From IMG/VR virus record IMGVR_UViG_3300012662_000001, positions 1 to 64,000 of that record: a DNA stretch of 64,000 nucleotides; one strand, given 5' to 3'. A program made the position numbers and the translations under genes. Source of the stretch: a virus. This document shows, piece after piece, positions 1,960 to 61,944 of this stretch (its first letter is position 1; each line of letters opens with the position of its first letter). The notes below the pieces were generated by a model. It was not told the DNA's origin. It made no database searches and saw only the letters and a list, made by a program, of their open reading frames with translations.

Positions 1960-3080
1960 GGTTATTGGAAGGATGAACAGATTGTTACTATTGACTTTGA
2001 AGATGGTCGACAATTGGAATTCAATGCTAAAAAGAAACTTGTGGTGGAACGTAATGGTCAACATATAGAATTATGTGCGAAGAATTTTGAAGTCGGGGAC
2101 AATATACTTGCATATTGATAATGATTTTGTACCTTTGTAAAAAGAAATTAAGTTATGGAAGATTATTTATTAAAATGCGTAAATTACAGCATTGAGCCTG
2201 TACGATTTGATGGTACAAAATTTGTTTATCTTTATGAAACTACGAATTTATGTAATGGGCATATTTACATAGGAGTAAGAGTGTATGATGGTAATCATCC
2301 TGAGAATGATCATTACATTGGTAACGGTTGTGGCATTAGAGTGAAGTCTGGTGCATTGTATAAAAGGAAAGGTAAAGAAACATATTTTAGAAGGGAACTT
2401 TCTAAATGGGGGTATCTTAACTTTAAGAAGAAAATTATTTGTTATTTTACTTCACTTGACGATGCACTACTTTCTGAAAAGAATATTGTGAATGAGGATT
2501 TTCTTGCTCGTAAGGATGTGATGAATATGGTTGAGGGGGGAGGTTTTCCTCCTTATGGTTGTGGTGAAAGTAATAGTAATTACGGTCATTATTGGACAGA
2601 GGAACAGAAACAGGCTTTATCCAAGAAACGTAAAAAACGTGGAAAGAGCAAGGGGGCAAATAATCCAAAGGCTACAGAGTGTTGGGTTTATGATTTATGG
2701 ACTGATAAAATTCATCATTTGCCTTTTATGAATCAAGCTGTTCAAATGGGATTGGTTGATAGATTGGCTTGTGGTATGAATCGGCTTTATAATTTTAGAT
2801 ATCTTTTTACTTCAAAAGAAGTAGGTGATGTAGAAACTTATCTTATGGAAAATTGTAAACCAAAATATCGTGACACCTATAAATTAATTCAGTTGGTTAA
2901 GTCTGGAAAAACTCGTGATGAAATCCACGAAATGGGTATAGTTAATGGTGGATTTTTAGGTAGGTTTTTCACTAAATATGATAAATATGTCGAAGATAAC
3001 AAAAATTAAGATTGAGGACAGGAAGGGATTCGTGCGTGTTTCCCTTCCTGACGAGTAGCCCCCATCAGTGATGGTGGGGG
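1960..3080 (+). mobile_element. putative group I intron interrupting dnaE, carrying a GIY-YIG homing endonuclease ORF (splice sites approximate)
   Basis: The DnaE catalytic motif EIDTDF (3087-3104) lies in frame upstream of the first ATG (3138). That frame is closed by TGA at 3069-3071 and has no start codon. Exon 1 ends after a U (1959 or 1962). Strong hairpins at 3020-3049 and 3059-3080 end in G3080. The insert is AT-rich. Confidence 0.55.
2155..3009 (+). CDS. GIY-YIG family homing endonuclease (intron-encoded)
   Basis: N-terminal KFVYLYETTNLCNGHIYIGV (GIY...YIG spacing); later basic NUMOD-like repeats (YGHYWTEEQKQALSKKRKKRG); AT-rich relative to the flanks; sits inside a split dnaE. Confidence 0.7.
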   Translation: MEDYLLKCVNYSIEPVRFDGTKFVYLYETTNLCNGHIYIGVRVYDGNHPENDHYIGNGCGIRVKSGALYKRKGKETYFRRELSKWGYLNFKKKIICYFTSLDDALLSEKNIVNEDFLARKDVMNMVEGGGFPPYGCGESNSNYGHYWTEEQKQALSKKRKKRGKSKGANNPKATECWVYDLWTDKIHHLPFMNQAVQMGLVDRLACGMNRLYNFRYLFTSKEVGDVETYLMENCKPKYRDTYKLIQLVKSGKTRDEIHEMGIVNGGFLGRFFTKYDKYVEDNKN

Positions 3081-13636: not shown

Positions 13637-14260
13637 ATGACGATGGGTACAACACAGATTGTAGGTTCGGCGATTGACACAGGCAGGGCGATCGGCGATG
13701 TTGGTATGATGGCCGTTACGGCTGGATTTTTTCTTGTTCTTTCTGGCATCCTTATGGTGGTGTGCTTTAAGTGGTTTATTCGACTTATTAACAGTATGTT
13801 GGAGGATCAGAAACGAACAATGGAGGAACTCCTAAAGGAGACACGCAATCAGAATTCACAGCTCGCCGAGTTGTCAGAATGTTTGGCCCCAGGAAATCAA
13901 CTGAAGACAAAGGTCATCTCGAATGCGTTTTTTGACTTGGGTGTGGAAAAGGTCTGCCACTTGATTAAGAAAGTGAGAGCCGAGAACCATATAGCGGATA
14001 GACAGGCCACAGAGAAAAAGGTTTATAAACTGTTGAAGAATCTACACAATGACCGAAACACTAAGTTGGATTCATTCACCTATCACGGACGTTCGCTTTC
14101 AAGTTATACAAATGAAGAGTGGATAGACAGGGTTAAGGTCGTTGTTCTGGAGGAACTTTACAATACCACTGGAGCCAATGATGAGCGTGCCAATACCAAT
14201 GTGGTGGCAATCTATGATCAGATAAAACTGGACTTTTATAGTAATATGATGCAGAAGTGA
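13637..14260 (+). CDS. hypothetical membrane-anchored protein
   Basis: N-terminal hydrophobic segment (MMAVTAGFFLVLSGILMVVCF). Confidence 0.5.
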   Translation: MTMGTTQIVGSAIDTGRAIGDVGMMAVTAGFFLVLSGILMVVCFKWFIRLINSMLEDQKRTMEELLKETRNQNSQLAELSECLAPGNQLKTKVISNAFFDLGVEKVCHLIKKVRAENHIADRQATEKKVYKLLKNLHNDRNTKLDSFTYHGRSLSSYTNEEWIDRVKVVVLEELYNTTGANDERANTNVVAIYDQIKLDFYSNMMQK

Positions 14261-15387
14261 TGGGTCTCTTTGAATTTATAGCAAAATCTCGTTCAGGTGT
14301 GTATAAGGATACATCTGAGAATCGTAGACTTCACCGTGTTGGACAGAAGTATGGTGGGCAGAAACAATTGGAGGATGAGGGTGAATTGATCCCTGGAATG
14401 CCTAATTCCACCAAGGTGAATCTGAAGAAGTATTTGTCTGATAAGGTAAAGGAACAAGTTGAGGAATATATTGCTAATGTTTCCACTCTTAAGGGGTTGT
14501 GGAATAAATCTGAGGGTCTGGATGCTATAATTGATCAGATTCAACATCATTTTAATAAGAATTTTGATTCCATTCCCAAGGCACAGAGAGCCTTTTATGT
14601 GGCAGTAGTGAAATGTCTTCTGGAACGTAAGGAAGAACTTCGTACAGGTGAAAAGAAAGATGTTTCCACTATGACTGAGACTGAAGAATTTGCTATTAAG
14701 CAGCAGAATGCAAGGCTTGAACGTGCTAAAAGACAACAGGCAGATTTTGAATTGTTAGCCAAGACATACGGAATTGAACGTGGTGCTCCTATGTCAATTG
14801 ATTTGGCAGACAGCGAACACGCAAATCCAAGGTATTGTACTCTTGTGGATGGAAGTTTTCGCCCTTATACTTCGAACTGTCAGACCTGTGTGGTTGCCTA
14901 TGAACTTCGTAAACGAGGATATGATGTTGAAGCAATAGGTGTTGCTGTTAAAAAGGGTGAGTATTCAAACGGTTTTCAACAAAGTATAGCAAGAGATAGC
15001 ACTTTTTCATTCGAAGAAGATGTGGATCCTGTTAAGTTGAATGGTGGTATTAAATCTAACACAGATAAGGGTCGTAGACAGTTTTTGGAAAATATCTGTA
15101 ATGTCACAAAGGAAAGTGGAACATATTTCTTTTCTTTTAAGAACAAAGGCAGATTTAGTGCTCATATAGTAGTGCTTGAAAGATTGTCTGATAAACTTCT
15201 TTTGGTTGATCCACAGGCGAATATAAAGAAGAATCTTTTGGAACCGATTGAATATACAAGATACTTTAAGAGTATTGATATTGTTTCTGAACATAATCAG
15301 GTCTTTCGGGTGAATGATTTAACATTCAAACCAGAAGTCTTTTCTATAGTGAAAAAGGCAGATATAAAATTAGACAACAATGATTGA
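14257..15387 (+). CDS. NRRLHRVGQxYG-motif protein with possible C-terminal papain-fold (Cys/His/Asp) domain
   Basis: N-terminus SRSGVYKDTSENRRLHRVGQKYG is shared with 54695..55876 and occurs twice in 53060..54622. C-terminal part has SNCQTCVVAYELRKRGYD, then SAHIVVLE, then LLLVDPQ. AT-rich. Confidence 0.55.
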   Translation: MMGLFEFIAKSRSGVYKDTSENRRLHRVGQKYGGQKQLEDEGELIPGMPNSTKVNLKKYLSDKVKEQVEEYIANVSTLKGLWNKSEGLDAIIDQIQHHFNKNFDSIPKAQRAFYVAVVKCLLERKEELRTGEKKDVSTMTETEEFAIKQQNARLERAKRQQADFELLAKTYGIERGAPMSIDLADSEHANPRYCTLVDGSFRPYTSNCQTCVVAYELRKRGYDVEAIGVAVKKGEYSNGFQQSIARDSTFSFEEDVDPVKLNGGIKSNTDKGRRQFLENICNVTKESGTYFFSFKNKGRFSAHIVVLERLSDKLLLVDPQANIKKNLLEPIEYTRYFKSIDIVSEHNQVFRVNDLTFKPEVFSIVKKADIKLDNND

Positions 15388-15616
15388 CGAAAAGGATATA
15401 TTGAAGATCTGTGAAACAGCAGGTTGGAAAGGTGGCAAGCTGATTTACGGTGGGTTCGCTGACGGCAAGTATTACGTTTCCTACGGAGCGGAGAGTGACG
15501 GTGCTGAACTTGCGTGTGTGGGTGCTCCTATAATTCTTGTCGTGGAGAACGGCAGGTGTAGAACAGCCACTGACAAGGAATGGGTTTACTTTTACGAAAA
15601 TTTTGTGAAAGATTAA
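15380..15616 (+). CDS. hypothetical small protein (immunity-like position)
   Basis: 78-codon ORF overlapping the end of the preceding gene. Confidence 0.4.
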   Translation: MIDEKDILKICETAGWKGGKLIYGGFADGKYYVSYGAESDGAELACVGAPIILVVENGRCRTATDKEWVYFYENFVKD

Positions 15617-15623
15617 GGATTGT

Positions 15624-15656
15624 TCCTTGGATTATCAGGATGAATGATTATATTTG
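15624..15656 (+). promoter_or_regulatory. promoter/operator cassette P2
   Basis: TCCTTGGATTATCAGGA, then TATATTTG; 19-nt spacer. Confidence 0.55.
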
Positions 15657-15684
15657 CATAGTGAAAATTAAAAATGATTTCGTT

Positions 15685-16137
15685 ATGATTAAGATTGTCA
15701 CAAAATCTCAGGATCGTTTTCGTCAGGCTGCTGAAATAGCAGTTCAGGCGCATCGGGGTCAAGTTGACAAGAATGGTGTTCCGTACATCTGTCATCCTAT
15801 TGCCGTTGCTCAGAAGTGTCCATATTATACAGCCAAGTGTGTGGCTATGCTTCACGACGTGCTGGAGGATACGGAGTTTACCTCAGAGGACTTGCTTGCT
15901 ATGGATGTTGATCCATATATCGTTGAATGTGTAGAAAAGTTGACACACGATTCAAAGGTTCCATATCTGGACTACATTCAAAGCATAATTGACACACGAG
16001 ACACAAATATCATCAGCATAAAGTATGCTGATCTGTGTGACAATCTTGATCCGACGAGGGGTGGCTTGAACAAGGAGAAGTTATCTCTGTATAGTAAGGC
16101 CAGAAGAATGATGGAGGAAGCCTTATGTCTTGTGTAG
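15685..16137 (+). CDS. small HD-domain (p)ppGpp pyrophosphohydrolase (SpoT/MESH1-like)
   Basis: AHRGQVDKNGVPYICHPIAVA...MLHDVLEDT...VEKLTHD matches the RelA/SpoT hydrolase-domain signature. ATG at 15685 chosen because P2 lies inside the longer ORF. Confidence 0.7.
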   Translation: MIKIVTKSQDRFRQAAEIAVQAHRGQVDKNGVPYICHPIAVAQKCPYYTAKCVAMLHDVLEDTEFTSEDLLAMDVDPYIVECVEKLTHDSKVPYLDYIQSIIDTRDTNIISIKYADLCDNLDPTRGGLNKEKLSLYSKARRMMEEALCLV

Positions 16138-22251: not shown

Positions 22252-23865
22252 ATGAACACAAGAATTCTGTTTGGAAAGGACGCAAGGGCGGCTCTGCTTG
22301 CAGGAGCGGAGGAACTCTATTCAGCCGTGGCGTCCACTCTCGGTCCGAGAGGGCACACTGTCGCCATTGATAAGGGGTACGGCATTCCTCACATCACCAA
22401 GGATGGTGTGACGGTGGCTCGTGCCTATGACACTGATGACCCGATGAAGCGAATGGGGGCGACACTGGTGAAGATGGTGGCTGCAAAGACCTGTGATCAG
22501 GCAGGTGATGGAACGACAACGGCCACGATACTCTCCTACGCTATGATGAAGCGTGGTGTGAGCGGTCTGGTAAACATTCAGAACCCACACGAGTATCGTA
22601 GAGGAATGGAGGATGCTCGAGATGAGGCAGCCCATTATATTCAATCCAATGCCGTGAAAATAGAATCTGATGAAATTGATAGAATTAGACAGGTAGCCAA
22701 AGTGTCAGCCAATGGTGACGATATGGTCGCTGATCTTATTACTTCAGCGATAGAAAGCGTCGGCAATGACGGCATTATAACCGTTGAAGAAAGCACCAAG
22801 GGTGATGAATCCACTGTGGAGGTCACCACTGGGTTTCAGTGGGGCAAGGGTATCATCAATCCATACTTTGTCACGGATCCGGAACGAATGGAATGCGTGC
22901 TGGACAGACCGTATGTGCTTATCTGGGGTCAGAACATCAACTATGTGCAGGAGATTCTTGCCGTGGTGCAGACCGTTTATACGGCCAAGAGGTCACTTCT
23001 TATAGTGGCTCCTAATGCTTCCAATGACGTTATAAAGTTTCTTGTAACCAATGTTCAGCAGAACAATGGGCTAAAGGCGTGCTTCGTTAAGGCTCCTGGA
23101 TTTGGTCAGATGCAGAAGGACTTGATGCAGGACTTGGCCGTAAAGGTGGGCGGTAGAATTGTCGGCGAGGAGTACGGCAACGCCATTGAATCATTCGGCA
23201 CGGACTGGCTTGGTGAGGTGGACAGAGCCACTGTTTCAGCGAATAGAACCATTCTCGTGGGCGGTGCTGGAAAGGACGGTGACATCAACGCCCGAATAGA
23301 GTTCATAAAGAACGAGATGGAAGGCAACTCCAACACCTATGACAGAGAGAAGTACAGGGAGCGCATCAGTCGTCTTACAGGCGGTGCGGCCGTCATCTAT
23401 GTGGGTGCGGATAGTGAGGTGGAGATGAAGGAGCGCAAGGACAGAGTGGATGACGCCATTGCGGCCACCAGAGCGGCTCTTGATGAGGGTTATGTTCCTG
23501 GAGGAGGAACTGTGCAGTACAAGATAGCCAAGATTCTGGAAGGATCACTAAAGAGCAATCCAGGATGGAACATTGACTATGTGGAGGGCTATCGTGCCGT
23601 GATTGAAGCTCTAAAGGAACACTTCCATATCCTATGTCAGAACGCAGGTGTGGAGCCTGTTCGTGTTGAGGTTATGATGGACTTGAAGTCCAAGGACTTT
23701 CAGCAGGGGTATAATCCGTTCAAGAACAGAATTGAGGATATGTATAAGGCAGGAGTGATAGATCCAGCCAAGGTCACAAGAACATCTTTGGAGAATGCAG
23801 TGTCAGTGGCTGTTCAGTTTCTTGGTATGTCTTGCGCTATGTCAGGTGAGGAGAAGACTAAATAA
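22252..23865 (+). CDS. groL: GroEL-type chaperonin (Cpn60)
   Basis: LGPRGHTV, AGDGTTTATIL, ITVEESTKG, AAVIYVGADSEVEMKERKDRVDDAIAATRAALDEGYVPGGG, DPAKVTR. Confidence 0.9.
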   Translation: MNTRILFGKDARAALLAGAEELYSAVASTLGPRGHTVAIDKGYGIPHITKDGVTVARAYDTDDPMKRMGATLVKMVAAKTCDQAGDGTTTATILSYAMMKRGVSGLVNIQNPHEYRRGMEDARDEAAHYIQSNAVKIESDEIDRIRQVAKVSANGDDMVADLITSAIESVGNDGIITVEESTKGDESTVEVTTGFQWGKGIINPYFVTDPERMECVLDRPYVLIWGQNINYVQEILAVVQTVYTAKRSLLIVAPNASNDVIKFLVTNVQQNNGLKACFVKAPGFGQMQKDLMQDLAVKVGGRIVGEEYGNAIESFGTDWLGEVDRATVSANRTILVGGAGKDGDINARIEFIKNEMEGNSNTYDREKYRERISRLTGGAAVIYVGADSEVEMKERKDRVDDAIAATRAALDEGYVPGGGTVQYKIAKILEGSLKSNPGWNIDYVEGYRAVIEALKEHFHILCQNAGVEPVRVEVMMDLKSKDFQQGYNPFKNRIEDMYKAGVIDPAKVTRTSLENAVSVAVQFLGMSCAMSGEEKTK

Positions 23866-51211: not shown

Positions 51212-52003
51212 CTATTCGTCCAAAGATGGGTTTTTATTACTCATACAGCCGTTATCTGTAACCTTAAATCTTATGCCAATAACACGAGCCCTTTTCTTGG
51301 CAATCACCTTTTTAAGAATATATTCATACTCGAATGTAAGCCTACATCCTCTATCATCAATCTCCTTTTTACATTCCTTAATATAGTCCGTAACAAAGCG
51401 ATTAGTGTCTATCTGTTCTGGACAGTCCAGCCGCTTGCGAAGTTCCTGCAAGTCCGCATCCCAAACTCCAGCACCATATTTAGGATGCTTGCGGTTAAGG
51501 TTTTCTGACAAATAAAGGTACAAATTCATAGATGTAGGCCGTTGAAGAGCCATAAAAGATTGAACACAAAAAGAAGCATAACCTGTTTTCTTGGAAAAGT
51601 CCAACAACCATCTAAGAGAACGTGGTGGAATTCCCACCCAATATCTTCCATCCTTATTTAGAAGAGTGTAGAATAGAGGAAATGTAGCCTTTCTACCTTG
51701 TTCATCCACTTCATCTATGACGTTAATCTGCGTCATCTTTTCAAGTAGAGATCTTACACTGCCATTATGAGACATTACATATTTAGGTTCGATCTCTACT
51801 TCAAATTCAGAAAGGCTGTTTAGTGGAAAAATTTGTTTTAACCTTTCTGTGTCAAGAGTTTTCCAGTCCACTTCTTCATTTCCTGGAATAAATTCCTGCA
51901 AGGCTTCCACTACAACAGCCCAACAGCGTTTCTGTCGAGCAGAACTGTATTTTGTCACATCTCTTGTTGCACGTTTCGTTGTGCGTAAAATTCTTTTGCT
52001 CAT
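51212..52003 (-). CDS. putative replication initiator (Rep), paralog 2
   Basis: Paralog of 38634..39503 along its whole length; iteron array directly upstream. ATG at 52003 is downstream of the -7 box. Confidence 0.5.
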   Translation of the reverse strand: MSKRILRTTKRATRDVTKYSSARQKRCWAVVVEALQEFIPGNEEVDWKTLDTERLKQIFPLNSLSEFEVEIEPKYVMSHNGSVRSLLEKMTQINVIDEVDEQGRKATFPLFYTLLNKDGRYWVGIPPRSLRWLLDFSKKTGYASFCVQSFMALQRPTSMNLYLYLSENLNRKHPKYGAGVWDADLQELRKRLDCPEQIDTNRFVTDYIKECKKEIDDRGCRLTFEYEYILKKVIAKKRARVIGIRFKVTDNGCMSNKNPSLDE

Positions 52004-52023
52004 TTCGTTTGTAATTTGATGCA

Positions 52024-52031
52024 CAAATATA
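52024..52031 (-). promoter_or_regulatory. -7 box TATATTTG for rep paralog 2
   Basis: TAnnTTTG on the minus strand, 20 nt upstream of ATG 52003. Confidence 0.45.
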
Positions 52032-52067
52032 CAAATTATTTTCATAAACTATAATCCGTTCGTCTGT

Positions 52068-52146
52068 GGGGGGTTTTACACCTCTATTTGGGGGGTTTTA
52101 CACCTCTATTTGGGGGGTTTTACACCTCTATTTGGGGGGTTTTACA
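52068..52146. repeat. 3.6 tandem 22-bp iterons, GGGGGGTTTTACACCTCTATTT
   Basis: perfect copies at 52068-52089, 52090-52111 and 52112-52133; partial fourth copy at 52134-52146. Confidence 0.95.
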
Positions 52147-52943
52147 TTTCTGTAAAATTCTGTAAATGAAATAGTTATCGGGAAAAGAGGCCTCCTGTAA
52201 TAGTAGGGGTAATAGATATTGGGTAATAGTATGATTGTTTATTGATAGTATTACTCCTAAAGTCGTAATACATATCACAATCATACTATTACCTGAAATA
52301 GAAGGGAAATTAAGAAAAGGGAACCGAAACGTCACATCTGAAAATGGAGGGGCTTCGAAAGGGGACTCCTCCCTTACGGTCGGAGGTCTTGTCTTCCCCT
52401 TTCTACGCCCAGGAGAGGGTCGACAGAGCGACCCTGTTTCCTTATAGGAGAATCCTGTATGAAATGCCGTTATACAAACAGTCGTGTCAAGGCCGCAAAG
52501 AATTCAACATTCTTCCCTTCACACGCTTGAGAACGGATAGCATAGATGGGCAGTGCAGTTCCCTATGAAAGTCGTTTATGGAGCAGACATAAAAAGACAC
52601 ATAGCGAAAAGACGGTTGGTTCGATTCCACCTCCGTGGCCTAATTATTTCGGCCTTGTGCTGTAACGTGTTTTGTATTTGATTTGTGATTAGGTGAATTT
52701 GTCAGTTTTTAGACGATTTAGGCGATGTTTGATGTTGGTTCAGTGTAGTTGTCAGGTTTGTGATTAGTTTGTTCCTATATTGCGTAGAATTTTAGTTTGG
52801 ATATCATATTTACGAAAAATTGAGTTTTATCAGTAGTTTTAGAGTTTACAGAATTTTTCTTTTTCGTGTCATTATGCAGGTCGTCCACCGTCTGGGAAGT
52901 AAGGTTCTCCACGGTGGGCATTTTTATGAAAAATCGTGAAAAG

Positions 52944-53059: not shown

Positions 53060-54622
53060 ATGGCAGAAAAGAAATTGGTTCCAGTCGAGAGGTTCAGGGA
53101 GGTTGCCCTGAACAACGGCTATGAAGTGTTTGATGAGACACAGGTGGCGGACTATGCCAAGGACGCTATGATGAAGTCTCAGGCAGGTGTTCTTTCAAAG
53201 GAGGACAAGGATGAGTTCGCCGTGGAGATGGCGGGACTTATGAAGGCTATCTGTGCGAATGGGGACGGCAGTCAGTGCACTCTCTACTATCGCAAGCCGC
53301 TTGTTGACTGGAAAGTTGACGGCAACGGTGTCGTGATGAAGGGGATCGCAGGAACGTACACTGACACCCCTGAGAACAGAAAGTTGAATCGTGTGGGTCA
53401 GGCTTATGTTCCAAGTTCTGATGTTATTAAGTCTATCTATGGTGCTGGAAAGGAGGACATCGAGGAGAATAAGGTTGATGCTGAGATGGCAGAACAGGCC
53501 TCTTTCATTAGAAAGTCCTGTGCCGTTGTGGCCGCTGATGCGGAGAGAAGACTTGCCCTTGGTGAGATTGATGAAAAGCTCTGCAAGTCAGTGAAGACCG
53601 AGGTTGGTATGTATCTGACTTCGTGGGGTGACACGCTTGATGAGTGCTGCGACGTTGTGAAGTCTGAGGACTTGGCTGACGTGCGTGAGGACTTGGCTGA
53701 CGCCAAGGCGGCATTTGTTGACATTGTCAAGGCCGCTCACGGTCGCTATGCTGACACCGCCAAGAATAGAAGACTGCATCGTGTTGGTCAGGAGTACGGC
53801 AAGGCGGCTCAGGAGAAGGACAAAGATGAGAAGAAGCAGGGTGCGACTGATGGTGTATCAGGTGGGAAGCCGTCTCGCAATGGTGATTCCGTGAAACGTG
53901 ATCTTTCCATTCTTGAGGAGAACAAGGATAGGATTGTTGAGAAGTACGGCCAGGAAGCCTATGATAGGAAAGTTGAAACCCTAAAGAAGGAGGGTGATGA
54001 CTACGAGCAGAAGGAGACCGTGAAGCAACTCAAGGAGCGTGCTGACAAGCAGGACGCTGAGGAGGAGGAACGCAAAAAGGCTGATAAGAGAGCCAAGCGT
54101 CAGGAGAAGCGCAGAGCACGTCACGCAGCCAAGCGTGAGGCCGCTAAAAAGGCCAAGGAGGAAGTCGAAGTCAAGGCAAAGGCTGAAGTGGAGAAACAGC
54201 ATCCTGAGGAGAAAGAACAACCTGAAAAGAATGCGAATAGCATTGAGTTGACTTCTAAGGGCATTAAGGACTATGTTGACAAGAATAGCAGTACCCCTGA
54301 TGCTCGTATGCAAGCGATGGCCGCAGCCTATAAGGCACTCAAGGATAGTGGCAAGAGTAAGAAAGTTGACACGTTTGTTAAGGAGGTGTCAACTGGAAGT
54401 CCAAAAGTTGATATGGTTACACGGAAGTATGTGGAAGCTACTATGGCTGGAGCCACACACGAGGAAGCCAAGGCGTTTGCTGAAAAGGAGTTCAACTTAC
54501 TTGAGCACGGTATTCAGATGGCTCAGACTGCCATAGAGGACAATCTTCCTCAAGGTATGGCACAGCATTTGATGAAGACAGCCTATGCCGTCTTTGATAA
54601 GGCGAAGTTTACAAAGAAGTAG
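53060..54622 (+). CDS. NR(K/R)L.RVGQ-motif protein (two motif copies), Lys/Glu-rich; candidate internal virion/ejected protein
   Basis: GTYTDTPENRKLNRVGQAY (53351-53407) and GRYADTAKNRRLHRVGQEYG (53741-53800). The C-terminal 120 aa are paralogous to 54695..55876. ATG at 53060 is downstream of the promoters. Confidence 0.55.
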   Translation: MAEKKLVPVERFREVALNNGYEVFDETQVADYAKDAMMKSQAGVLSKEDKDEFAVEMAGLMKAICANGDGSQCTLYYRKPLVDWKVDGNGVVMKGIAGTYTDTPENRKLNRVGQAYVPSSDVIKSIYGAGKEDIEENKVDAEMAEQASFIRKSCAVVAADAERRLALGEIDEKLCKSVKTEVGMYLTSWGDTLDECCDVVKSEDLADVREDLADAKAAFVDIVKAAHGRYADTAKNRRLHRVGQEYGKAAQEKDKDEKKQGATDGVSGGKPSRNGDSVKRDLSILEENKDRIVEKYGQEAYDRKVETLKKEGDDYEQKETVKQLKERADKQDAEEEERKKADKRAKRQEKRRARHAAKREAAKKAKEEVEVKAKAEVEKQHPEEKEQPEKNANSIELTSKGIKDYVDKNSSTPDARMQAMAAAYKALKDSGKSKKVDTFVKEVSTGSPKVDMVTRKYVEATMAGATHEEAKAFAEKEFNLLEHGIQMAQTAIEDNLPQGMAQHLMKTAYAVFDKAKFTKK

Positions 54623-54634
54623 AAAAATTCACAG

Positions 54635-54672
54635 AGCACTCCTTGGAATCTCCTGAGGAGTGCTTATATTTG
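54635..54672 (+). promoter_or_regulatory. promoter/operator cassette P12 embedded in a 9-bp-stem inverted repeat
   Basis: AGCACTCCTtggaatctcctgAGGAGTGCT, then TATATTTG. Confidence 0.55.
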
Positions 54673-54694
54673 CATTGTGAAAAAATTGAGAGTT

Positions 54695-55876
54695 ATGTTA
54701 ATAGAGAAATCAAGAAGTGGTGTCTATCAGGACAATCCGGAAAATAGGCGGCTGCATCGTGTCGGTCAACGCTATGGTGAACAGAAACAATCGGAGGAAA
54801 AGAAAGGTGGTGATGATGGTGTAAGGGATGTGGAGATTGTTACTTCCAAGCAGGGGGTTAAGACATTTCTTTCCGGGAAAGTTGGTGGCGACTACTATAA
54901 GGCTGTTGCTGAAGCCCATAAGGCATTAAAGAGAAGTGGTAAGAATAAGTCTGTTTCTCTTATGCTTGCTGAATCCGGAAGCGGTGAGCCGTCCAAGGAT
55001 GTTCCTGCAAGGAAATATGTGGAAGCTGTTAATGGTGGTGCTTCTCACGATGAGGCCGTCGTCTTTGCCAATGGCTGTTACGATGAACTTCTGGCAAAGA
55101 TAAAGAACGTTCAGGAAAAGGTTCATAGCGAGGGTGTTAGCTCTTCCGCTTCTACGAAGATGTTTGCGGCTGTGAACAAGTGGTTTAATGATCAGAAGTT
55201 TGAGAAGAAAGTTATTTCAGAATCTAAATCCATTGCTGATAGAATGAAGGAAGCAGGGTTTAAGCAGACTAATGAGGGGTGGGAGAAGTCCAATGGGGAT
55301 ATAACTGTGTCAGTTAAGAAACTAGCTTCGGGATATTACATTGGTGCAAATGATGGTAAACCCAAAACTTTAGTGCCTACACAGGCACATTTTTCTGGAG
55401 ATCCATTTGAAAAGATGCTTGCGGCTGTTGACAAGCGTCTTGTTTCTGCGGAAGCAGCCAGAAAACAGGCTGAGGAGATTGATAGAGGGGTTCGTGCGGC
55501 AGAGGAGAAGCACAATCTGGAGGAGATTAAGCGAATTAATGAGAAGATGAATGCTTTTATGAAGAAGCAGCCCGACGCTGATAAGAAATCGACTGAAACG
55601 TCGGAAAAACCGACTTCACGTGTCACGTTTGTTGATGTTCCACACGCCAAGGATGTAAATTTGAAGAAATATCTTACTGATTCAAGGCGTAAGCAAGTTG
55701 ATTATTTGATGAAGGCTGCAGAAGTTATGCCGAAAAGCACTTTGAAACAGATGCACGACGAAGCCGTTAAGAAGTTCAATGACAACTTTGACAGTATGAA
55801 GAAGTCAGAGCGTGCTTCCGCTCTTTATGTCATTATGAAATATAAGGACTTGATGAATAAAAAAATCCTTAAATAA
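54695..55876 (+). CDS. NRRLHRVGQxYG-motif protein; candidate internal virion/ejected protein
   Basis: The N-terminus EKSRSGVYQDNPENRRLHRVGQRYGEQKQ is nearly identical to that of 14257..15387. Its C-terminal NLKKYLTD...KFNDNFDS is also paralogous to that gene. Confidence 0.55.
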   Translation: MLIEKSRSGVYQDNPENRRLHRVGQRYGEQKQSEEKKGGDDGVRDVEIVTSKQGVKTFLSGKVGGDYYKAVAEAHKALKRSGKNKSVSLMLAESGSGEPSKDVPARKYVEAVNGGASHDEAVVFANGCYDELLAKIKNVQEKVHSEGVSSSASTKMFAAVNKWFNDQKFEKKVISESKSIADRMKEAGFKQTNEGWEKSNGDITVSVKKLASGYYIGANDGKPKTLVPTQAHFSGDPFEKMLAAVDKRLVSAEAARKQAEEIDRGVRAAEEKHNLEEIKRINEKMNAFMKKQPDADKKSTETSEKPTSRVTFVDVPHAKDVNLKKYLTDSRRKQVDYLMKAAEVMPKSTLKQMHDEAVKKFNDNFDSMKKSERASALYVIMKYKDLMNKKILK

Positions 55877-55886
55877 GGAGAAGAAT

Positions 55887-56285
55887 ATGAAAATGCACGA
55901 CGATATAGTCAAGAGAATGTCTGATGCCAAGGTGTCATTCGGTTCCATAGAGGATGTTCTTAGGGAGGGGGCAAGAAGTAAGAGCGGTGACTCCGGAGCC
56001 TATGTTGGTGACATTGAAGTTGACCTCAGTGGTTCTTATAATGAGCACGCCTGGAATTCTTCTGGCAGGAACAAGCCAAAGAAGACATATCAACTTATAA
56101 TTCACACGAAGAAGATAGACGGTGTGGATAACTTTGGTATCGTGCGAGCCTTTAATGACGGCACTCTTACAAGAGATCAGATCGAGAGTGTCACTCTTGC
56201 GGAAAGTAATCCGTGGGAGGGTTACTGGACAAAGATTAGAGAAGTGGATTTGGATGATATGCCTGTAAAGGCCGATAGAAAATAG
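55887..56285 (+). CDS. hypothetical protein
   Basis: 132-codon ORF. Confidence 0.5.
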   Translation: MKMHDDIVKRMSDAKVSFGSIEDVLREGARSKSGDSGAYVGDIEVDLSGSYNEHAWNSSGRNKPKKTYQLIIHTKKIDGVDNFGIVRAFNDGTLTRDQIESVTLAESNPWEGYWTKIREVDLDDMPVKADRK

Positions 56286-57071: not shown

Positions 57072-58790
57072 ATGTCAAGAAGACAGCGAAATAGAAGTCA
57101 TCGTATGGGAGCTGAATCAACGGCTCCCATAGATGCTTTAGAGGGGATGTCCATTCAGGAGTTGAGCCTGATGTCACAGGCCGCTCCGCTTGCTCTTCAG
57201 AATCGGCTGGAAAAGGCTCTTCGTTCAGAGAACGTTGAGGACGTGCTAAAGGCACAGGCGTTCATCGCACAGCAGGAGAAGAGCGGCAGAGCTGTCAAGC
57301 CTGACATCAAGTCCATCCTATGGAATCCATCTGACATAGGGTTCAATGGTCGTGGCTATCGTGATCCGAACAATGGCATACCGTTCACCACACTTCAGCG
57401 GATGGGTGATATCTATATTATTAAGGCCATCATTAACACTCGTATTGAACAGATACAGAATTTCTTGCGATATAGTGATGATGATCAGAAGCCTGGATTC
57501 CAGCTGCGATACAAGCAGATGCTCGGCGGTGACATTAAAGAGATATCCAAGAAGGATATGAAAGTTGTTGAGGGGCTTGTGCGCTTTTTGGAGGATGGTG
57601 GTGAGAATGATAAGTGGTCTTCGGAGGACAATTTTCAGGATTTTACACGTAAGACCATCAAGGATTCACTCTGTCTGGATCAACTCTGCTTTGAGGTTGT
57701 TCGCAGTCGGAGTATGAAAGTGAATAAGTTCAGAGCGGTGGATGCCTCTTTGATACGGCAACTTGACACGGATGATCCTCGCTATGCAAGTATGTTTGAA
57801 TCATATAGGTGGCACGGTTATCTTCCTCGCTATGCGATGGTCTATGACAGTCAGATAATACGTAATCCAGCAACTGATGAGCTTGTTGTCTACTATCCGT
57901 GGGAACTTGGTTACGGCATACGTAATAAGACGACCAATGTGTTTAGGAATGGCTATGGCTGTTCTGAACTGGAGACCCTTATAGAGGTCGTGACGTGGAT
58001 TCTGTGGGGTATGCAGTATAACGGTAATTTCTTTAAGCAGGGTTCACAGCCAAAGGGATTCATTAATGTCAAGAATTCCAATATTGACCAAGGCACGCTG
58101 AATGAGTTTCGTCAGGACTGGAAACAGACGATGTCCACTGTTTATAATGCTCACAAGATTCCTGTAATACAGGGTATTGATCTTGAGTGGGTAGACTTGC
58201 AGCAGTCCAACAAGGATATGGAGTTCACGGAGTGGATTAAGTTCCTTTTCGTGGTGACGTGCGCTGTGTATCGTATTGACCCATCAGAGTTGGGTTTTCA
58301 GTTTCAGGATGCAGCAAGGGTGTTCGGACAGGACGGTCAGAAGGAGCGTCTTGACCATTCACAGAAGAAAGGTCTCTTTCCTCTACTCATTTTCTTTCAG
58401 AACATTGTGAATCGCTATATCATATCTGAGATAGATGACCGTTTTGAATTCGTGTTTACAGGCGTGGACATCAAGGACGAATCTGCTCAGATAGAGATTG
58501 ACAAGAAGAAGTTGGACGCAGGTGTTGTTTCTCTGGAGGATATGTTCCGCAAGTATTCGGGGCGTGACCTTGACCCTGAGAAGGATACCATTCTCAATTC
58601 CATCTATCAGACGGCACAGAGCAACAAGATGATGGGTGGTGAGGATATGAACGGAGCCGTTGATCAGATGAACGGTGAGGGTGGCGGTGACGACTTTGAC
58701 ATTGCTGATATGCTTATGCAGAAGTCACAGGGCAACCCTATTCTTGGCAAGGCACTGGAGTTTATTGATAATCAGTTATCGGCAAAATAA
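57072..58790 (+). CDS. portal protein (by size and synteny)
   Basis: 572 aa; immediately precedes a MuF-like gene, as in SPP1-type head modules (portal then gp7/MuF); no motif verified. Confidence 0.55.
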   Translation: MSRRQRNRSHRMGAESTAPIDALEGMSIQELSLMSQAAPLALQNRLEKALRSENVEDVLKAQAFIAQQEKSGRAVKPDIKSILWNPSDIGFNGRGYRDPNNGIPFTTLQRMGDIYIIKAIINTRIEQIQNFLRYSDDDQKPGFQLRYKQMLGGDIKEISKKDMKVVEGLVRFLEDGGENDKWSSEDNFQDFTRKTIKDSLCLDQLCFEVVRSRSMKVNKFRAVDASLIRQLDTDDPRYASMFESYRWHGYLPRYAMVYDSQIIRNPATDELVVYYPWELGYGIRNKTTNVFRNGYGCSELETLIEVVTWILWGMQYNGNFFKQGSQPKGFINVKNSNIDQGTLNEFRQDWKQTMSTVYNAHKIPVIQGIDLEWVDLQQSNKDMEFTEWIKFLFVVTCAVYRIDPSELGFQFQDAARVFGQDGQKERLDHSQKKGLFPLLIFFQNIVNRYIISEIDDRFEFVFTGVDIKDESAQIEIDKKKLDAGVVSLEDMFRKYSGRDLDPEKDTILNSIYQTAQSNKMMGGEDMNGAVDQMNGEGGGDDFDIADMLMQKSQGNPILGKALEFIDNQLSAK

Positions 58791-58961: not shown

Positions 58962-59909
58962 ATGCTTTTTACGGACAAGGACATACAGCGTATTCTAAAG
59001 GAAGTGGACTTGTCCACGGCCAAGTTGGTGGCTCGTGTTCTTGGCAGAAATTACCTGACGAAGTATGACCTCGATTTGTTGAAGAAGCGTGGTGTTGACC
59101 TATTAAAGTTGATACCGAAGTTTCCAGTGCATTATCAGTCGTTCCTGTTTGGTCGTGTTTCGGCCGCACTGGGCGATTCCATCACTAGAACGATGGGTTA
59201 TTCTGATCTGTTACAGTTTCTTCCTAAAATGGGTGATTTTGTCCCGACTGCGATGGAATTGTCCTTCTATGACGTGGCGGCTAATAAGACCTACACACAT
59301 ATAAAGGGCTTTGGTGATAGACTGAAGAATGACGTGCGAAACGCTATTTCCGCCGAGGAGATGTCCTATATACAGACTGAACAGGCCGCAAGGGCGAACA
59401 AGGTCATTCACGATGAGATATTGAATGGTACTGTTCAGAAGCGGACGGTGCAGAAGATTGCTTCCAATATAGCACATCAGATGGATGACTGGAATAGGGA
59501 TTGGGGGCGTATTGTGGAGACGGAGTGTCAGGATGTGTTCAATCTTGGTAGGGCACAGACGTTTATGCAGGATGACGCTGATCCCAAGGTGTTCTTTCAA
59601 GTGTATCCTGGAGCCTGTAAGCACTGCATCCGTCTATATTTGACACACGGTGTGGGTTCACAGCCGAGGATATTCAGGCTTTCAGAGTTGTTGGCCAACG
59701 GCACGAACTATGGTGTTAAGTCGAAGGAATGGAAGCCTACCGTTCACCCAGTACATCCCTTTTGCCGCTGCCAAATAACCAGACTTCCAGAGGGTTATGT
59801 ATGGAGTGAGGAGAATCACAGGTTTGAACCTCCTAAGAACTATGTTCGTAAGGTACAGCGCAGGAGCAAGGTTCACATTGATATCGGTGACAAACATTAT
59901 GACGTATAA
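58962..59909 (+). CDS. MuF-like minor head protein (SPP1 gp7 family)
   Basis: C-terminal ...CKHCIRLY...VHPVHPFCRCQITRLP matches the Phage_Mu_F H-P-x-C-R-C signature. Confidence 0.75.
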   Translation: MLFTDKDIQRILKEVDLSTAKLVARVLGRNYLTKYDLDLLKKRGVDLLKLIPKFPVHYQSFLFGRVSAALGDSITRTMGYSDLLQFLPKMGDFVPTAMELSFYDVAANKTYTHIKGFGDRLKNDVRNAISAEEMSYIQTEQAARANKVIHDEILNGTVQKRTVQKIASNIAHQMDDWNRDWGRIVETECQDVFNLGRAQTFMQDDADPKVFFQVYPGACKHCIRLYLTHGVGSQPRIFRLSELLANGTNYGVKSKEWKPTVHPVHPFCRCQITRLPEGYVWSEENHRFEPPKNYVRKVQRRSKVHIDIGDKHYDV

Positions 59910-59916
59910 AAATTAT

Positions 59917-61245
59917 ATGATTATGAGATTCAAGAAATGGCTTGGGATAATGACTCCGCAGGAAAAGCTGGAGGAGTATCACGATCTTAGAAAGCGGCTT
60001 GCTCAGATAGAGGATGAGGGTAAAGAACTTGCTCATCAGTTCTCTATTCAGAAGTCCATTGTTGACAGCATTGGTGAGGGTGTGCCTGATTCCAGAAGAG
60101 CGGAGGTGCTTGCGAAGCACACCGACTTTATGAAAGGTCACACGAAGCGTGTCACTGCCTGTGTCAATGAGCGTGAAAAGATTCTGAAGGGAATTGCCGT
60201 GCTTGTTGAGGAATGTCAGGAGGTGCGTGATGAGATTGCCAAGAGCCGCAAGTTGAACGGTCTGATGGAACTTCGCAAGGTTGGCAAACTGAACGAGAGT
60301 GAATATTTTAATCTTGTCAAGTCAGTGGACGGCAAGCCTGTTCGGTATGCTGATATGGTTGCTATGCGTGAATCAGACGGCAAGATTCTCATTCTGCATC
60401 GTGTGGATGATGAGATGTGTTCGACAGGTGAGGTGTGCATTCCTGGAGGTCACGTTGAGCCTGACGAGGACTTTAAGACAGCGGCCTTGCGTGAGTTTAA
60501 GGAAGAGACGAATCTTGATCCTATTGTGGCCAGAGGTATTCGTTATCTCGGTGAGTATAAGAGCGTTGATGCTCACATTCAGTATTTTCAGGTCTATGTG
60601 GATCCAGGACAGCCGATTACGGTTGATGCCACAGAGGAGTGCTTCTATGAGTGGATAGACATAAGTGAGATTCCGTTCAAAAACTTTATCTTTGACCAAG
60701 GGAAGAATGTGCTGAATATGATGAACAGGGTATGGCGTATGGATTCCGTTGAGCCGCTTGACACGGTTGTTAAGGCTGTTCAGGATGGTCGTATGTCCGT
60801 TCAGTGTTTTAAGGAAATCTGTTCTGACATTGTGAAAAAGGCACTGGCCACGGAGAACGCAGCACCTGTCATTCCGGAGAGTATGGAGGGTGACGTGAAG
60901 AAACTCACTATGCCTGTTCGTGACCCGATGTGTGGTGTTGAAACGCTTTTGAAGGGAATCAACGGTGTTGACGAGGTGGTTGTGAACGGCACGGAGACTA
61001 TTAAGTTTGTTAAGCCGTTGTTCATTCATAGTGTTTCCTATGAGGAAAATCCGGAGACAAATAGACTTGTTCAATGTGAGGTTGCCTATGTTGGTGAGGA
61101 TTCAGATATGAGCAAGCTGATTGACGTCTTGCGGAATGGTTTGAGGAATGGTTCGGTGAATTTCAGAGTTAAGGAAGAGGAATTTACTTCCGTTAATGAG
61201 AACGGCACGGACTATGTCGGTGACCCCATCTTTGCGGTTATGTAA
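59917..61245 (+). CDS. Nudix hydrolase domain protein with long N- and C-terminal extensions
   Basis: Nudix box GGHVEPDEDFKTAALREFKEETNL (Gx5Ex7REUxEExGU). ATG at 59917 is the first start after the MuF stop. Confidence 0.75.
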   Translation: MIMRFKKWLGIMTPQEKLEEYHDLRKRLAQIEDEGKELAHQFSIQKSIVDSIGEGVPDSRRAEVLAKHTDFMKGHTKRVTACVNEREKILKGIAVLVEECQEVRDEIAKSRKLNGLMELRKVGKLNESEYFNLVKSVDGKPVRYADMVAMRESDGKILILHRVDDEMCSTGEVCIPGGHVEPDEDFKTAALREFKEETNLDPIVARGIRYLGEYKSVDAHIQYFQVYVDPGQPITVDATEECFYEWIDISEIPFKNFIFDQGKNVLNMMNRVWRMDSVEPLDTVVKAVQDGRMSVQCFKEICSDIVKKALATENAAPVIPESMEGDVKKLTMPVRDPMCGVETLLKGINGVDEVVVNGTETIKFVKPLFIHSVSYEENPETNRLVQCEVAYVGEDSDMSKLIDVLRNGLRNGSVNFRVKEEEFTSVNENGTDYVGDPIFAVM

Positions 61246-61281: not shown

Positions 61282-61944
61282 ATGAGCGGAACGAATGACT
61301 TTAACTTCTTTCTTCCAGCTGATCTTGTAAAGGCGGAGGATTCAACTCGGTATCCTCGTGGTGACGAAAGACGCTACGAGAATATGGTGTTTGAAGGAAT
61401 CGCGAGTGACAATAGCAAGGACTATGAGGGAGAGAGTATGGAGCCGAAAGGCTTTGACTTGAGTCACTTCCTGAAGCACGGTCTGTTGAATCTTGATCAC
61501 CTTACTATAAGAGCGAAGGAACTAAAGTCCAGATTCTGGATTGGTGAGCCGCTGGAGGCCAAGATTGTTGACAACAAACTCTGGGTGAAAGGTAAGCTCT
61601 GGAAGGATAGTCCTGAAGCAAGGGCGTTCTGGGATAAGTGCATTGAGATGGCTGAGAGTGGCTCGACACGCAAGCCAGGAATGTCCATCGAGGGGCGTGC
61701 TCTGGAACGTGACCCGAAGAACCCAAAGCATATACTCAAGGCTATTATCAATAATATAGCGATGACGTTCACTCCAGTGAACTTCAATTCCTATATTGAG
61801 ATTGCAAAGGGAATTCAGTCGCAGGATTTCTATCCTACTGACGGTTCAATAGCAGTTAGTGATGATGTGATGCTGGAGGTTGTGCGTGGTGGCAGGAAGT
61901 TTATTATTAAATCAGATTTTACAACGGTGGAAGAAAGCATCTAA
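61282..61944 (+). CDS. prohead protease (HK97/S78-like)
   Basis: FEGIASDNSKDYEGESM, LLNLDH (His), GMSIEG (Ser), NIAMTFTPVNFNS. Pattern and position (between portal/MuF and the capsid gene) are typical. Confidence 0.6.
   Translation: MSGTNDFNFFLPADLVKAEDSTRYPRGDERRYENMVFEGIASDNSKDYEGESMEPKGFDLSHFLKHGLLNLDHLTIRAKELKSRFWIGEPLEAKIVDNKLWVKGKLWKDSPEARAFWDKCIEMAESGSTRKPGMSIEGRALERDPKNPKHILKAIINNIAMTFTPVNFNSYIEIAKGIQSQDFYPTDGSIAVSDDVMLEVVRGGRKFIIKSDFTTVEESI

Follow-up and report, generated by a model that had tools for sequence, protein, structure and literature searches.

A conserved peptide module on mosaic proteins of large Bacteroidota phages: a candidate docking tag for loading cargo into the head

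RESULTS

Organization of the locus

Three proteins encoded in the window, the whole 64,000-nucleotide stretch of phage DNA analysed here, carry a common peptide motif (Table 1). A six-frame regular-expression search of the 64 kb with NR[RK]L.RVG gives four matches only, at 14320–14343 in protein A, 53375–53398 and 53765–53788 in protein B and 54743–54766 in protein C, and the motif pattern does not occur in 300 shuffles of the window. The sequence-only reading had counted four copies in three proteins; this count is exact, and the peptides match those it quoted. The start codons were judged from homologues. With starts at ATG 14260 for A (MGLFEFIAKSRSG...) and ATG 54695 for C (MLIEKSRSG...), the motif lies within ~10 residues of the N-terminus in both proteins, so its placement at the extreme N-terminus of two proteins in the same reading also holds. 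The start of protein B is ATG 53060. Searches of the whole window for tRNAs and Rfam families were negative.

Table 1. Coordinates of the motif carriers, their modules and the neighbouring head genes in the window
Feature	Position	Strand	Description or evidence
Protein A, 375 aa	14260..15387	+	N-terminal motif, module Y, linker, papain-fold toxin domain (Gln_amidase)
Motif copy in A, FIAKSRSGVYKDTSENRRLHRVGQKYGGQ	14275..14361	+	regular expression and translation
Module Y in A	14389..14640	+	helical domain, NLKKYL...FN.NFDS; BLASTP against C
78-aa ORF	15380..15616	+	overlaps the stop codon of A; conserved downstream of A-like genes
Protein B, 520 aa	53060..54622	+	conserved N-domain, motif 1, helical insert, motif 2, Lys/Glu-rich linker, module X
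Motif copy 1 in B, VMKGIAGTYTDTPENRKLNRVGQAYV	53336..53410	+	regular expression and translation
Motif copy 2 in B, IVKAAHGRYADTAKNRRLHRVGQEYGK	53723..53803	+	regular expression and translation
Module X in B	54191..54619	+	KALK.SGK...RKYVEA..GA.H.EA; BLASTP against C
Protein C, 393 aa	54695..55876	+	N-terminal motif, module X, variable middle, module Y
Motif copy in C, LIEKSRSGVYQDNPENRRLHRVGQRYG	54698..54778	+	regular expression and translation
Portal protein	57072..58790	+	PF04860, E 3.7e-17; phrog_12, E 1.9e-39
MuF-like minor head protein	58962..59909	+	phrog_115, E 6.2e-9
NUDIX protein of the head module	59920..61245	+	PF00293, E 1.5e-15
Head maturation protease	61282..61944	+	phrog_1028, E 3.2e-39

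Genes B and C lie immediately 5' of the portal/MuF head module, as had been proposed, and gene A is in the replication/early region, outside this module. The MuF-like protein stays below the Pfam threshold for PF04233 (Phage_Mu_F; 21.5 bits against 29.6, E 4e-4). Pfam and PHROG scans detect no MuF or portal domain in A, B or C. The MuF-like protein, the NUDIX protein and the protease of the window are all without the motif, showing that their incorporation does not depend on it. The nearest record to the portal is an unannotated 'Bacteriophage sp.' from human faeces (MT835500.1, 49% identity), followed, among named relatives, by Chryseobacterium phage MA9V-3, the Bacteroides phages DAC and SJC03 and SPO1-like Bacillus phages. 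The motif carriers belong to a clade of large, apparently virulent Bacteroidota phages with an SPO1/Herelleviridae-like portal; no integrase was noticed in the subset of window ORFs that was scanned.

Modular structure of proteins A, B and C

Two further segments are exchanged among the three proteins. Module X is common to B (residues 378–520) and C (residues 35–178; BLASTP E 5e-14), and module Y to A (residues 48–125) and C (residues 321–396; E 4e-8), in agreement with the mosaic of shuffled segments described earlier from the letters. Other than the N-terminal header and module Y, A and C have nothing in common. Module X is restricted to the closest relatives (L004–L006), and module Y occurs in 36 ORFs of the collected loci (jackhmmer), 35 of which also have the motif. 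The Lys/Glu richness ascribed to B and C is real (K+E fractions of 0.24 and 0.23, compared with 0.12–0.18 for most neighbours); the acidic scaffold-like protein p254 likewise has 0.23.

Protein B is a core gene upstream of the portal. Its N-domain was detected in 36 ORFs, each of them located 5' of the portal gene, even where portal identity is only 45–49% (L011, L015). The shortest versions (166–168 aa) consist of the N-domain and two motifs, with one motif in L014. In the AF2 model, motif 1 forms a strand (93–100), a short helix (104–108) and a second strand, with mean pLDDT of 64, 93 and 83 for the 10-residue blocks 91–100, 101–110 and 111–120. The strand 93–100 directly follows three strands of the N-domain, and it may extend the N-domain sheet in this model. 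Motif 2 shows the same strand/helical turn/strand pattern with lower confidence (pLDDT 65–80). A Foldseek search with the B model gave nothing significant in the PDB and uncharacterised metagenomic phage proteins only in BFVD. The slot between B and the portal, taken by protein C in the window, is variable. In phages with 93–95% identical portals, this slot holds a protein of 427 aa (56% identity), one of 199 aa that has only the motif and module Y in common, or a frameshifted copy.

Protein A carries a toxin domain of the PF15644 family (Gln_amidase, residues 207–321), which scores 33 bits (E 1.4e-7) where the family cut-off is 24.1. Residues Cys208, His303 and Asp318 are invariant or nearly so among 18 homologues. 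The domain is modelled with pLDDT of 81–94, and Foldseek matches it to a papain-like toxin (9l5u), CdiA-CT and AvrPphB with probabilities of 0.96–0.99 and weak E-values (~0.02–0.04). Module Y of A is helical in the model (pLDDT 73–90). The motif segment (residues 8–35) has pLDDT of only 36–54, so its placement relative to the remaining protein is not confident. Searches with the deamidase domain gave close A-like proteins only, with no MuF-fused relatives. The domain occupies a distal locus here and the portal-proximal slot in other phages. The 78-aa ORF is present directly 3' of every A-like gene (L007, L010, L016, L017 and L048; 74–96% identity) and has no family match in profile searches. 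By analogy with toxin–immunity pairs (PMC5576092), it is possibly an immunity or partner protein of A.

Sequence conservation of the motif

The motif is ~27 residues long, with the consensus (D/E)(D/E)x-I-E-K-(A/S)-R-S-G-V-Y-x-D-(T/N)-(P/A)-E-N-R-(R/K)-L-x-R-V-G-Q-x-Y-G, followed in phage carriers by a flexible Lys/Glu-rich linker. Among 68 instances from 59 protein clusters, G at position −8 (67 of 68), Y at −6, N at 0, R at +5, V at +6 and G at +7 are constant. The core, with arginine conserved at +1, +2 and +5, carries about three net positive charges. The copies of A and C are identical at 17 of 21 residues, 11 of which use different codons, and the nucleotide identity among copies is only 57–65%. 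So many codon differences with the peptide kept indicate old purifying selection rather than recent DNA duplication. The motif is a genuine, selected and self-contained module and represents an undescribed sequence family: profile and sequence searches of Pfam, PHROG, NCBIfam, PADLOC and PDB sequences found no curated family covering it (zero matches in the PDB), and a literature search on LGRVG returned nothing relevant.

Distribution of the motif

An exhaustive profile search of 1.84 billion representative proteins matches 1,289 clusters, and the motif occurs at 136 places in IMG/VR. The sequence-only reading had suggested a profile search of phage and ICE proteomes and mentioned a similar motif in large proteins of phages and conjugative elements. 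The phage part of this suggestion stands, with a 1,411-aa protein bearing two copies and proteins of NUDIX-motif-X-motif arrangement; conjugative elements were not borne out, as none of 72,556 plasmids has a match. The search found the motif almost absent from bacterial genomes as well, with ~5 genuine instances in the genomes of 185,579 prokaryotic species (one genome each). Among the prokaryotic replicons searched, the motif is essentially confined to phages. The degenerate DNA pattern Y.D...NR.LGRVG gave 17 genome-contig hits, about the number estimated for chance from base frequencies, and only ~4–5 of them are genuine. The tblastn matches in Pseudomonas phage Psa21 and Enterococcus phage fHoEfm07 were judged to be chance by reading the sequences. 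Against an index of 5.8 billion proteins, the motif profile retrieved only proteins of 30–84 aa, many apparently truncated or frameshifted. The only cultured carriers are Bacteroides phages DAC16, DAC19, DAC20, DAC22, DAC23 and SJC03, for which the literature search found no virion proteome.

Position, cargo and genomic context of phage carriers

In most of the 59 IMG/VR carrier clusters, the motif lies within the first 60 residues, and single-copy phage carriers from the global search mostly show it near residues 2–40. The C-terminal parts of the 59 clusters are unrelated. Domains detected in 58 representatives are Zeta_toxin (4), Gln_amidase (4), NUDIX (2), HEAT (2) and RelA_SpoT (1), and most representatives have no known domain. 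Judged from these matches, the cargo is predicted to be of effector type, toxin-like together with many proteins of no known domain. Zeta toxin, papain-fold deamidase, RelA/SpoT and NUDIX are effector types that otherwise occur joined to MuF or portal proteins. Fusions of RelA/SpoT and Zeta-like domains to MuF have been reported (PMC5512222; PMC5576092), and NUDIX is present in portal family phrog_15528.

The gene order B, C-slot, p224, portal, MuF, NUDIX, protease is conserved. A portal homologue is present in the fetched flank of 53 of the 79 loci, and the motif gene lies away from head genes in 13, as gene A does; these loci were collected from IMG/VR by means of the motif and include many close relatives, which means that the counts are not independent. 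In more distant phages, the motif gene is between portal and MuF or abuts MuF (L065, L069, L073). In DAC22, the four carriers (DAC22_77, a Zeta toxin, and DAC22_80, DAC22_82 and DAC22_85) are ~75 kb from the portal and adjoin large fibre-like genes.

The motif is also fused to head-type proteins. In one locus (L045, 9260–10768), a prohead protease (residues 3–165) carries it at about residue 262. In another (L070), a MuF homologue has a C-terminal copy with ~20 residues after it, the only distant relative of this kind. Homologues of the head-module NUDIX protein contain one or two copies (561 aa in L011, 870 aa in L015). A further candidate for a MuF–motif fusion, P0148, was rejected as unrelated to MuF.

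Tandem arrays in invertebrate proteins

The same motif is found as 3–14 tandem repeats in TKL kinases and a RING protein of invertebrates, namely molluscs (snails, oysters), an echinoderm (starfish) and a cnidarian (hydroid); KAK0061970.1 and XP_062600528.1 are examples among the Biomphalaria and oyster kinases. Reciprocal profile searches link the phage and animal sets, and the sequence logos built from 68 phage and from 346 animal instances both read N-R-x-L-G-R-V-G. An animal protein with 13 repeats has no repeat-family match in Pfam. These arrays had escaped the sequence-only reading. They weaken readings that tie the peptide specifically to the phage portal or capsid, and its partner, if any, need not be a phage head protein.

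DISCUSSION

A docking tag for head loading

The reading that we favour, with a probability of about 0.45, is that the motif would serve as a docking tag by which cargo enters the procapsid, in the manner of the T4 capsid-targeting sequence. Gene position, the fusions to a prohead protease and a MuF-like protein and the variable cargo slot are consistent with it. The prohead protease, the MuF homologue and NUDIX are proteins expected inside procapsids, and their fusion to the motif supports head loading. So does the combination of a constant header with a variable cargo slot, as in T-even internal-protein loci, where variable cargo is encoded behind a constant header (PMC3012670). The conservation of the motif as a protein module, its header-like position, the effector-type cargo and the near confinement to phages point the same way. 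Counting against it are gene A and the 13 loci distant from head genes, the remote carriers of DAC22, the window's own MuF-like, NUDIX and protease proteins that lack the motif, and the animal arrays. We infer that this phage clade attaches the motif to proteins destined for the head interior. During procapsid assembly, the module would dock on a conserved head component, for which the scaffold or capsid interior, the portal/MuF complex and hub B, with one copy directly after its own N-domain, are candidates. The fused cargo would then be carried into the procapsid, including the papain-fold deamidase of A, Zeta-type kinases, RelA/SpoT, NUDIX and many unknown domains, and would be ejected with the DNA into the next host. 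Such a tag would take the place of a covalent MuF or portal fusion.

Alternative explanations

Pairing of the motif with its own copies, as in effector-associated or RHIM-type modules, would couple effectors to a hub (B with two copies, the animal kinases with 3–14) and make head association secondary or absent. Several proteins of one genome do have a common header, along with a conserved two-copy hub, and both the tandem arrays on TKL kinases and the RING protein and the reciprocal link between phage and animal sets would suit such pairing. RHIM, the fungal HET-s/PP and the bacterial BASS motifs are likewise ~20 residues long and G/N/Q-rich, stand singly at protein ends or in repeats, and occur on kinases and effectors in prokaryotic and animal proteins. 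Unlike these, the present motif has neither the (I/V)Q(I/V/L)G core, absent from the logos of all 68 phage and 346 animal instances, nor an NxGxQxG core, and it bears a strong charge, with three or four Arg and one Asp; its richness in Arg would disfavour in-register stacking. The variable positions of the hub copy (B motif 2) and the cargo copies also show no consistent co-variation within genomes, e.g. NQRLGRVGK and NRRKHRVGQ in L022. We consider self-pairing doubtful. A broader proposal, which we likewise regard as rather unlikely, is that the peptide is an undescribed adaptor mini-module of phages and animals that binds itself or a conserved ligand. In phages it would place changeable toxins or effectors on a portal-adjacent hub and in animals, where TKL kinases and a RING E3 bear 3–14 copies, act as a signalling scaffold, the two sets being related by descent or horizontal transfer and not by chance. 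The mini-module may then be a strand/turn/strand 'knuckle' of ~20 residues with the core Y-x-D-(N/T)-x-x-N-R-x-L-G-R-V-G.

The three conserved arginines and the positive charge of the core could instead belong to a basic hairpin by which proteins would be tethered to host nucleic acid or to the genome inside the capsid. The motif sits on proteins expected to share a capsid with DNA, and a polymeric nucleic acid as ligand would suit the animal arrays. However, it has no likeness to a known DNA-binding motif in Pfam or the PDB, its flanks are acidic and followed by mixed Lys/Glu linkers, and in the AF2 model copy 1 of B, following the N-domain strands, looks like part of a folded domain, not a free basic tail. 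We regard nucleic-acid binding as improbable. A function outside the virion, in which the carriers would be expressed normally in the cell and bind a conserved protein of the host, is somewhat less probable again: it agrees with the location of gene A among replication genes, the host-directed toxins among the cargo domains and an occurrence in animals that favours a partner not specific to phages, but poorly explains why a prohead protease, MuF and a conserved gene upstream of the portal would bear the tag. The lowest probability, a small one, goes to a processing site or propeptide at which the prohead protease would cut polyprotein modules apart or trim off a leader at the N-terminus. The head module does encode a maturation protease, the motif stands between domains in several multi-domain proteins, and the T4 tags are themselves removed by the prohead protease. 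On the other hand, 27 conserved residues go far beyond the needs of a cleavage site, part of copy 1 of B is modelled as structured, only the short tail follows the motif in the L070 MuF homologue, and no cleavage consensus is conserved after the motif in the 68 instances.

Comparison with known packaging systems

The T4 capsid-targeting sequence is ~10 residues long and is cleaved off by gp21. Like the present motif, it is a short conserved N-terminal tag on highly diverse proteins (IPI, IPII, IPIII, Alt) encoded at variable loci. The T4 proteins are packed into the prohead and injected, a fate proposed here for the motif carriers. The module here is longer (~27 residues), with an apparent small strand/turn/strand fold in AF2 models; it also occurs internally and in two copies, shows no sign of cleavage and belongs to a different phage lineage, with an SPO1-like portal. 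Given the two lengths, homology between the tags is not expected. Encapsulin cargo-loading peptides and the coat-binding helix-turn-helix at the C-terminus of P22 scaffolding protein are short C-terminal elements that dock cargo inside an HK97-fold shell. They resemble the proposed tag as short docking peptides but differ from the motif in their C-terminal position and unrelated sequence.

MuF polymorphic toxins and polyvalent proteins also combine a constant trafficking header with swappable C-terminal toxins (RelA/SpoT, Zeta-like kinase, peptidases), and their genes lie in the portal/MuF module with a small ORF after the toxin gene (PMC5576092; PMC5512222). The variable C-terminal toxin domains of the present family (Gln_amidase PF15644 in A; Zeta_toxin and RelA_SpoT in others) correspond to this design. 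In contrast to the MuF toxins, the header of A, B and C is a short peptide and not a head protein of ~110 residues or more. MuF toxins were described from temperate phages, whereas the carriers here are apparently virulent; the motif has no match in plasmids and is almost missing from the species genomes searched.

Implications

If the docking reading is true, the motif would provide a sequence rule for recognizing effectors injected by gut Bacteroidota phages of this large group, most of which are uncultured. It would mark at least 59 cargo clusters, mostly of no known function and probably anti-defence or host-takeover proteins, and would offer a 27-residue handle to package foreign proteins into Bacteroides phages. 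It would also mean that non-covalent tagging can substitute for the MuF and portal fusions of polyvalent proteins. The animal kinase arrays suggest that the motif has a partner, or associates with itself, in a way not specific to phages; if so, the motif would be a further case of a short signalling module common to prokaryotic conflict systems and animal signalling proteins.

Motif copies and shared segments in the window

The three motif-bearing proteins of the window, A, B and C, share a peptide of about 27 residues with an NR(R/K)L.RVG core. We call it the header where it stands at the N-terminus of its carrier. A six-frame scan for NR[RK]L.RVG gives four matches in the window and none elsewhere in it, at the same positions at which the sequence-only reading had placed the motif four times in three proteins; shuffled versions of the window contain it in 0 of 300 cases. 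Between the four copies, pairwise identity is 57-81% for protein versus 57-65% for DNA, and in any one pair 6-11 of the 12-17 residues that agree are encoded by different codons. Because protein identity is retained with different codons, the peptide is under long-term purifying selection and did not arise by recent DNA duplication. The shuffling of other segments among the three proteins, also proposed earlier, is confirmed by BLASTP: module X is common to B (residues 378-520) and C (35-178, E 5e-14), and module Y to A (48-125) and C (321-396, E 4e-8). Of 36 ORFs with module Y, 35 carry the motif, and the one that lacks it is a frameshifted copy. A metagenomic protein of 351 aa (P0148) begins with the first half of an A-type header (MGLTEYIIKSR...) and has the complete motif at its C-terminus only, which suggests that recombination within or adjoining the motif shuffles the modules.

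Features of the window; start codons of A, B and C were picked by comparison with homologues
Feature	Position	Strand	Remarks
DNA polymerase region	460-2118, 2155-3009, 3138-6065		two adjacent ORFs matching different parts of phrog_405; homing-endonuclease ORF (phrog_314) between them
Protein A gene	14260-15387	+	motif carrier
78-aa ORF	15380-15616		overlaps A stop codon at the end of the toxin gene; present after every A-like gene in relatives
HD-domain phosphohydrolase	15580-16137		phrog_990; Pfam HD_4 slightly under threshold
GroEL-type chaperonin, phage-encoded	22252-23865		phrog_5725, E 5e-140
Replication-initiator-like gene	51212-52045	-	starts directly beside the 22-bp repeats
22-bp repeats	52045-52151		inside the ~1 kb non-coding gap before gene B
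Protein B gene	53060-54622	+	motif carrier, two copies
Protein C gene	54695-55876	+	motif carrier
p132, 132-aa ORF	55887-56285		between C and p224; without motif; variable gene of the slot upstream of the portal

The 22-bp repeats comprise four overlapping register copies of a 41-nt reference, that is, the unit TGGGGGGTTTTACACCTCTATT head to tail about five times, and look like origin iterons. The DNA polymerase gene appears split, because a homing-endonuclease ORF lies between the two partial phrog_405 matches.

Distribution of the motif

The motif is outside every curated family searched, and no match in Pfam, PHROG, NCBIfam, PADLOC or PDB sequences covers it. A profile built from 15 copies and run against 1.84 billion representative proteins retrieves 1,289 clusters with E <= 1e-3, of which 432 reach E <= 1e-10. 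Scanning IMG/VR yields 136 confirmed places, and the 78 loci fetched there contain 128 ORFs with the motif, which group into 59 clusters at 60% identity. The logo of 68 instances reads (D/E)(D/E)x-I-E-K-(A/S)-R-S-G-V-Y-x-D-(T/N)-(P/A)-E-N-R-(R/K)-L-x-R-V-G-Q-x-Y-G, followed by a Lys/Glu-rich stretch. The only cultured phages with the motif are the Bacteroides phages DAC16/19/20/22/23 and SJC03, each of whose genomes has 3-5 places that match. The plasmid search gives no match. Among 185,579 prokaryotic species, one genome each, the specific pattern matches once, and a looser pattern 17 times, about the estimated chance number, with some 4-5 genuine. The suspected link to conjugative elements is thus not borne out. 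One of the few genuine cellular instances, in Bacteroides propionicigenes NSJ-90 (locus L085, 3367-8000), lies just downstream of a 422-aa ORF judged tyrosine-integrase-like from its sequence and two further ORFs, and this region may be a small integrative element.

Most carriers have the motif within 60 residues of the N-terminus. It also occurs between domains (two copies in a 1,411-aa protein; NUDIX-motif-X-motif proteins), in a MuF homologue that has it C-terminally (locus L070) and after a prohead protease domain (locus L045). The recognisable domains that follow the header are Zeta toxin, Gln_amidase, NUDIX, HEAT, RelA/SpoT and AAA; the majority of carriers have no known domain.

Genomic context

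Downstream of C lie the small ORFs p132 and p224, then the portal, a MuF-like minor head protein, NUDIX, the head maturation protease and an acidic scaffold-like protein. The portal belongs to the SPO1/Herelleviridae type; its closest relative, at 49% identity, is in an unannotated record from human faeces titled 'Bacteriophage sp.', and its closest named relatives are in a Chryseobacterium phage and the Bacteroides phages DAC/SJC03. The motif served to retrieve the context loci, many of which are closely related to each other; counts describe this set and are not independent observations. Where portals are 68-95% identical to that of the window, the order B, C-slot (the variable gene position between B and the portal), p224, portal, MuF, NUDIX, protease is kept. 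The N-domain of B and the directly following motif, there NRKKGVVG, are retained even at portal identities of 45-49%. More distant phages have a motif gene between portal and MuF or right beside MuF. The C-slot itself is variable: portals are 93-95% identical, yet the slot protein is 56% identical, half-length or frameshifted. No homologue of p132 turns up in the 79 related loci, and it matches no known family. The four carriers of DAC22 (variant NRKLGRVG) are far from the portal but adjoin large fibre-like genes.

Gene A is surrounded by replication genes (DNA polymerase, ligase, helicases), apart from the head module. Its product ends in a papain-fold toxin domain with conserved Cys/His/Asp residues, a Gln_amidase (PF15644) score above the cut-off and a confident AF2 model, for which Foldseek gives a papain-like toxin/immunity pair, CdiA-CT and AvrPphB with high probability and weak E (~0.02-0.04). 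Cargo shifts between loci behind one common header, because other phages have this deamidase domain, at 33% identity, in their C-slot protein close to the portal. The 78-aa ORF may encode an immunity protein. In four related loci (L007, L010, L017 and L048) a second motif-bearing gene sits between this ORF and the HD-domain phosphohydrolase.

Predicted structure

The AF2 model of B covers residues 1-270 and was built from 24 sequences. The N-domain is confident (block means >= 90 for residues 11-80), and motif 1 directly after it is modelled as a strand (93-100), a short helix (104-108) and a strand, with mean pLDDT of 64, 93 and 83 in the 10-residue blocks spanning it. We infer that the first strand joins the N-domain sheet. 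For motif 2 the model repeats this pattern less confidently. The N-terminal motif of A, with pLDDT of 36-54, is not confidently placed relative to module Y or the toxin domain. On these two models the motif looks like a small knuckle that might either be built into a domain, the case of B, or project as a free appendage, the case of A. Searching with the B model in Foldseek brings up nothing informative.

Related tandem repeats in animals

The top-scoring matches of the global search are non-phage proteins with 3-14 tandem copies of (K/R)-(T/V)-Y-V-D-N-x-x-N-R-x-L-G-R-V-G-(M/L)-P-x-G-S, with Ser-rich linkers between them and 41 residues as the median spacing. These proteins (P0026-P0047, P0098, P0143 and others) mostly have a Raf/CTR1/MLK-like (TKL) protein kinase domain C-terminal to the repeats; one has RING fingers and coiled coils after them. 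Those with a named source are encoded on large genomic animal scaffolds from gastropods (Biomphalaria, Physella, Bulinus, Plakobranchus, Candidula), bivalves (Saccostrea, Mercenaria, Mactra), the starfish Acanthaster and the hydroid Hydractinia. A profile built from 302 animal repeats only, searched against 4,266 ORFs of phage loci, finds 116 ORFs at E <= 1e-4, all of them true motif carriers (116/116), and detects B, C and A of the window at 7.9e-14, 2.9e-7 and 1.3e-6. Because reciprocal profile searches connect the two sets, they form one sequence family, which may reflect common descent, transfer or convergence. The animal repeat has no Pfam entry, and our literature search found no description of it or of the phage motif.

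Possible function

We tentatively read the motif, with a probability of roughly 0.45, as a putative head-addressing tag on head-associated cargo. A constant header on swappable effector domains is what such a tag would produce, and the same goes for the conserved hub that carries the motif at a fixed place upstream of the portal, for the motif's fusions to NUDIX, MuF and prohead protease, and for the variable slot. The animal arrays suggest that the partner of the motif, or its self-association, is not phage-specific. A homotypic adaptor is an unlikely alternative, though the most probable of the rivals. That the motif tethers nucleic acid is improbable, that it is a host-directed linear motif more so, and a protease site or propeptide is the least probable reading.

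For the head-addressing tag, the header and cargo pattern parallels the T4 capsid-targeting sequence (PMC3012670), and MuF toxins and polyvalent proteins follow a parallel logic (PMC5576092, PMC5512222). The defining feature of MuF toxins is missing here, because no MuF domain is in the same chain. The sequence-only interpretation is supported in part: a tag on head-associated cargo is a plausible candidate reading, and the tie to conjugative elements is not supported. The motif would belong with cargo-addressing tags and polymorphic effector headers.
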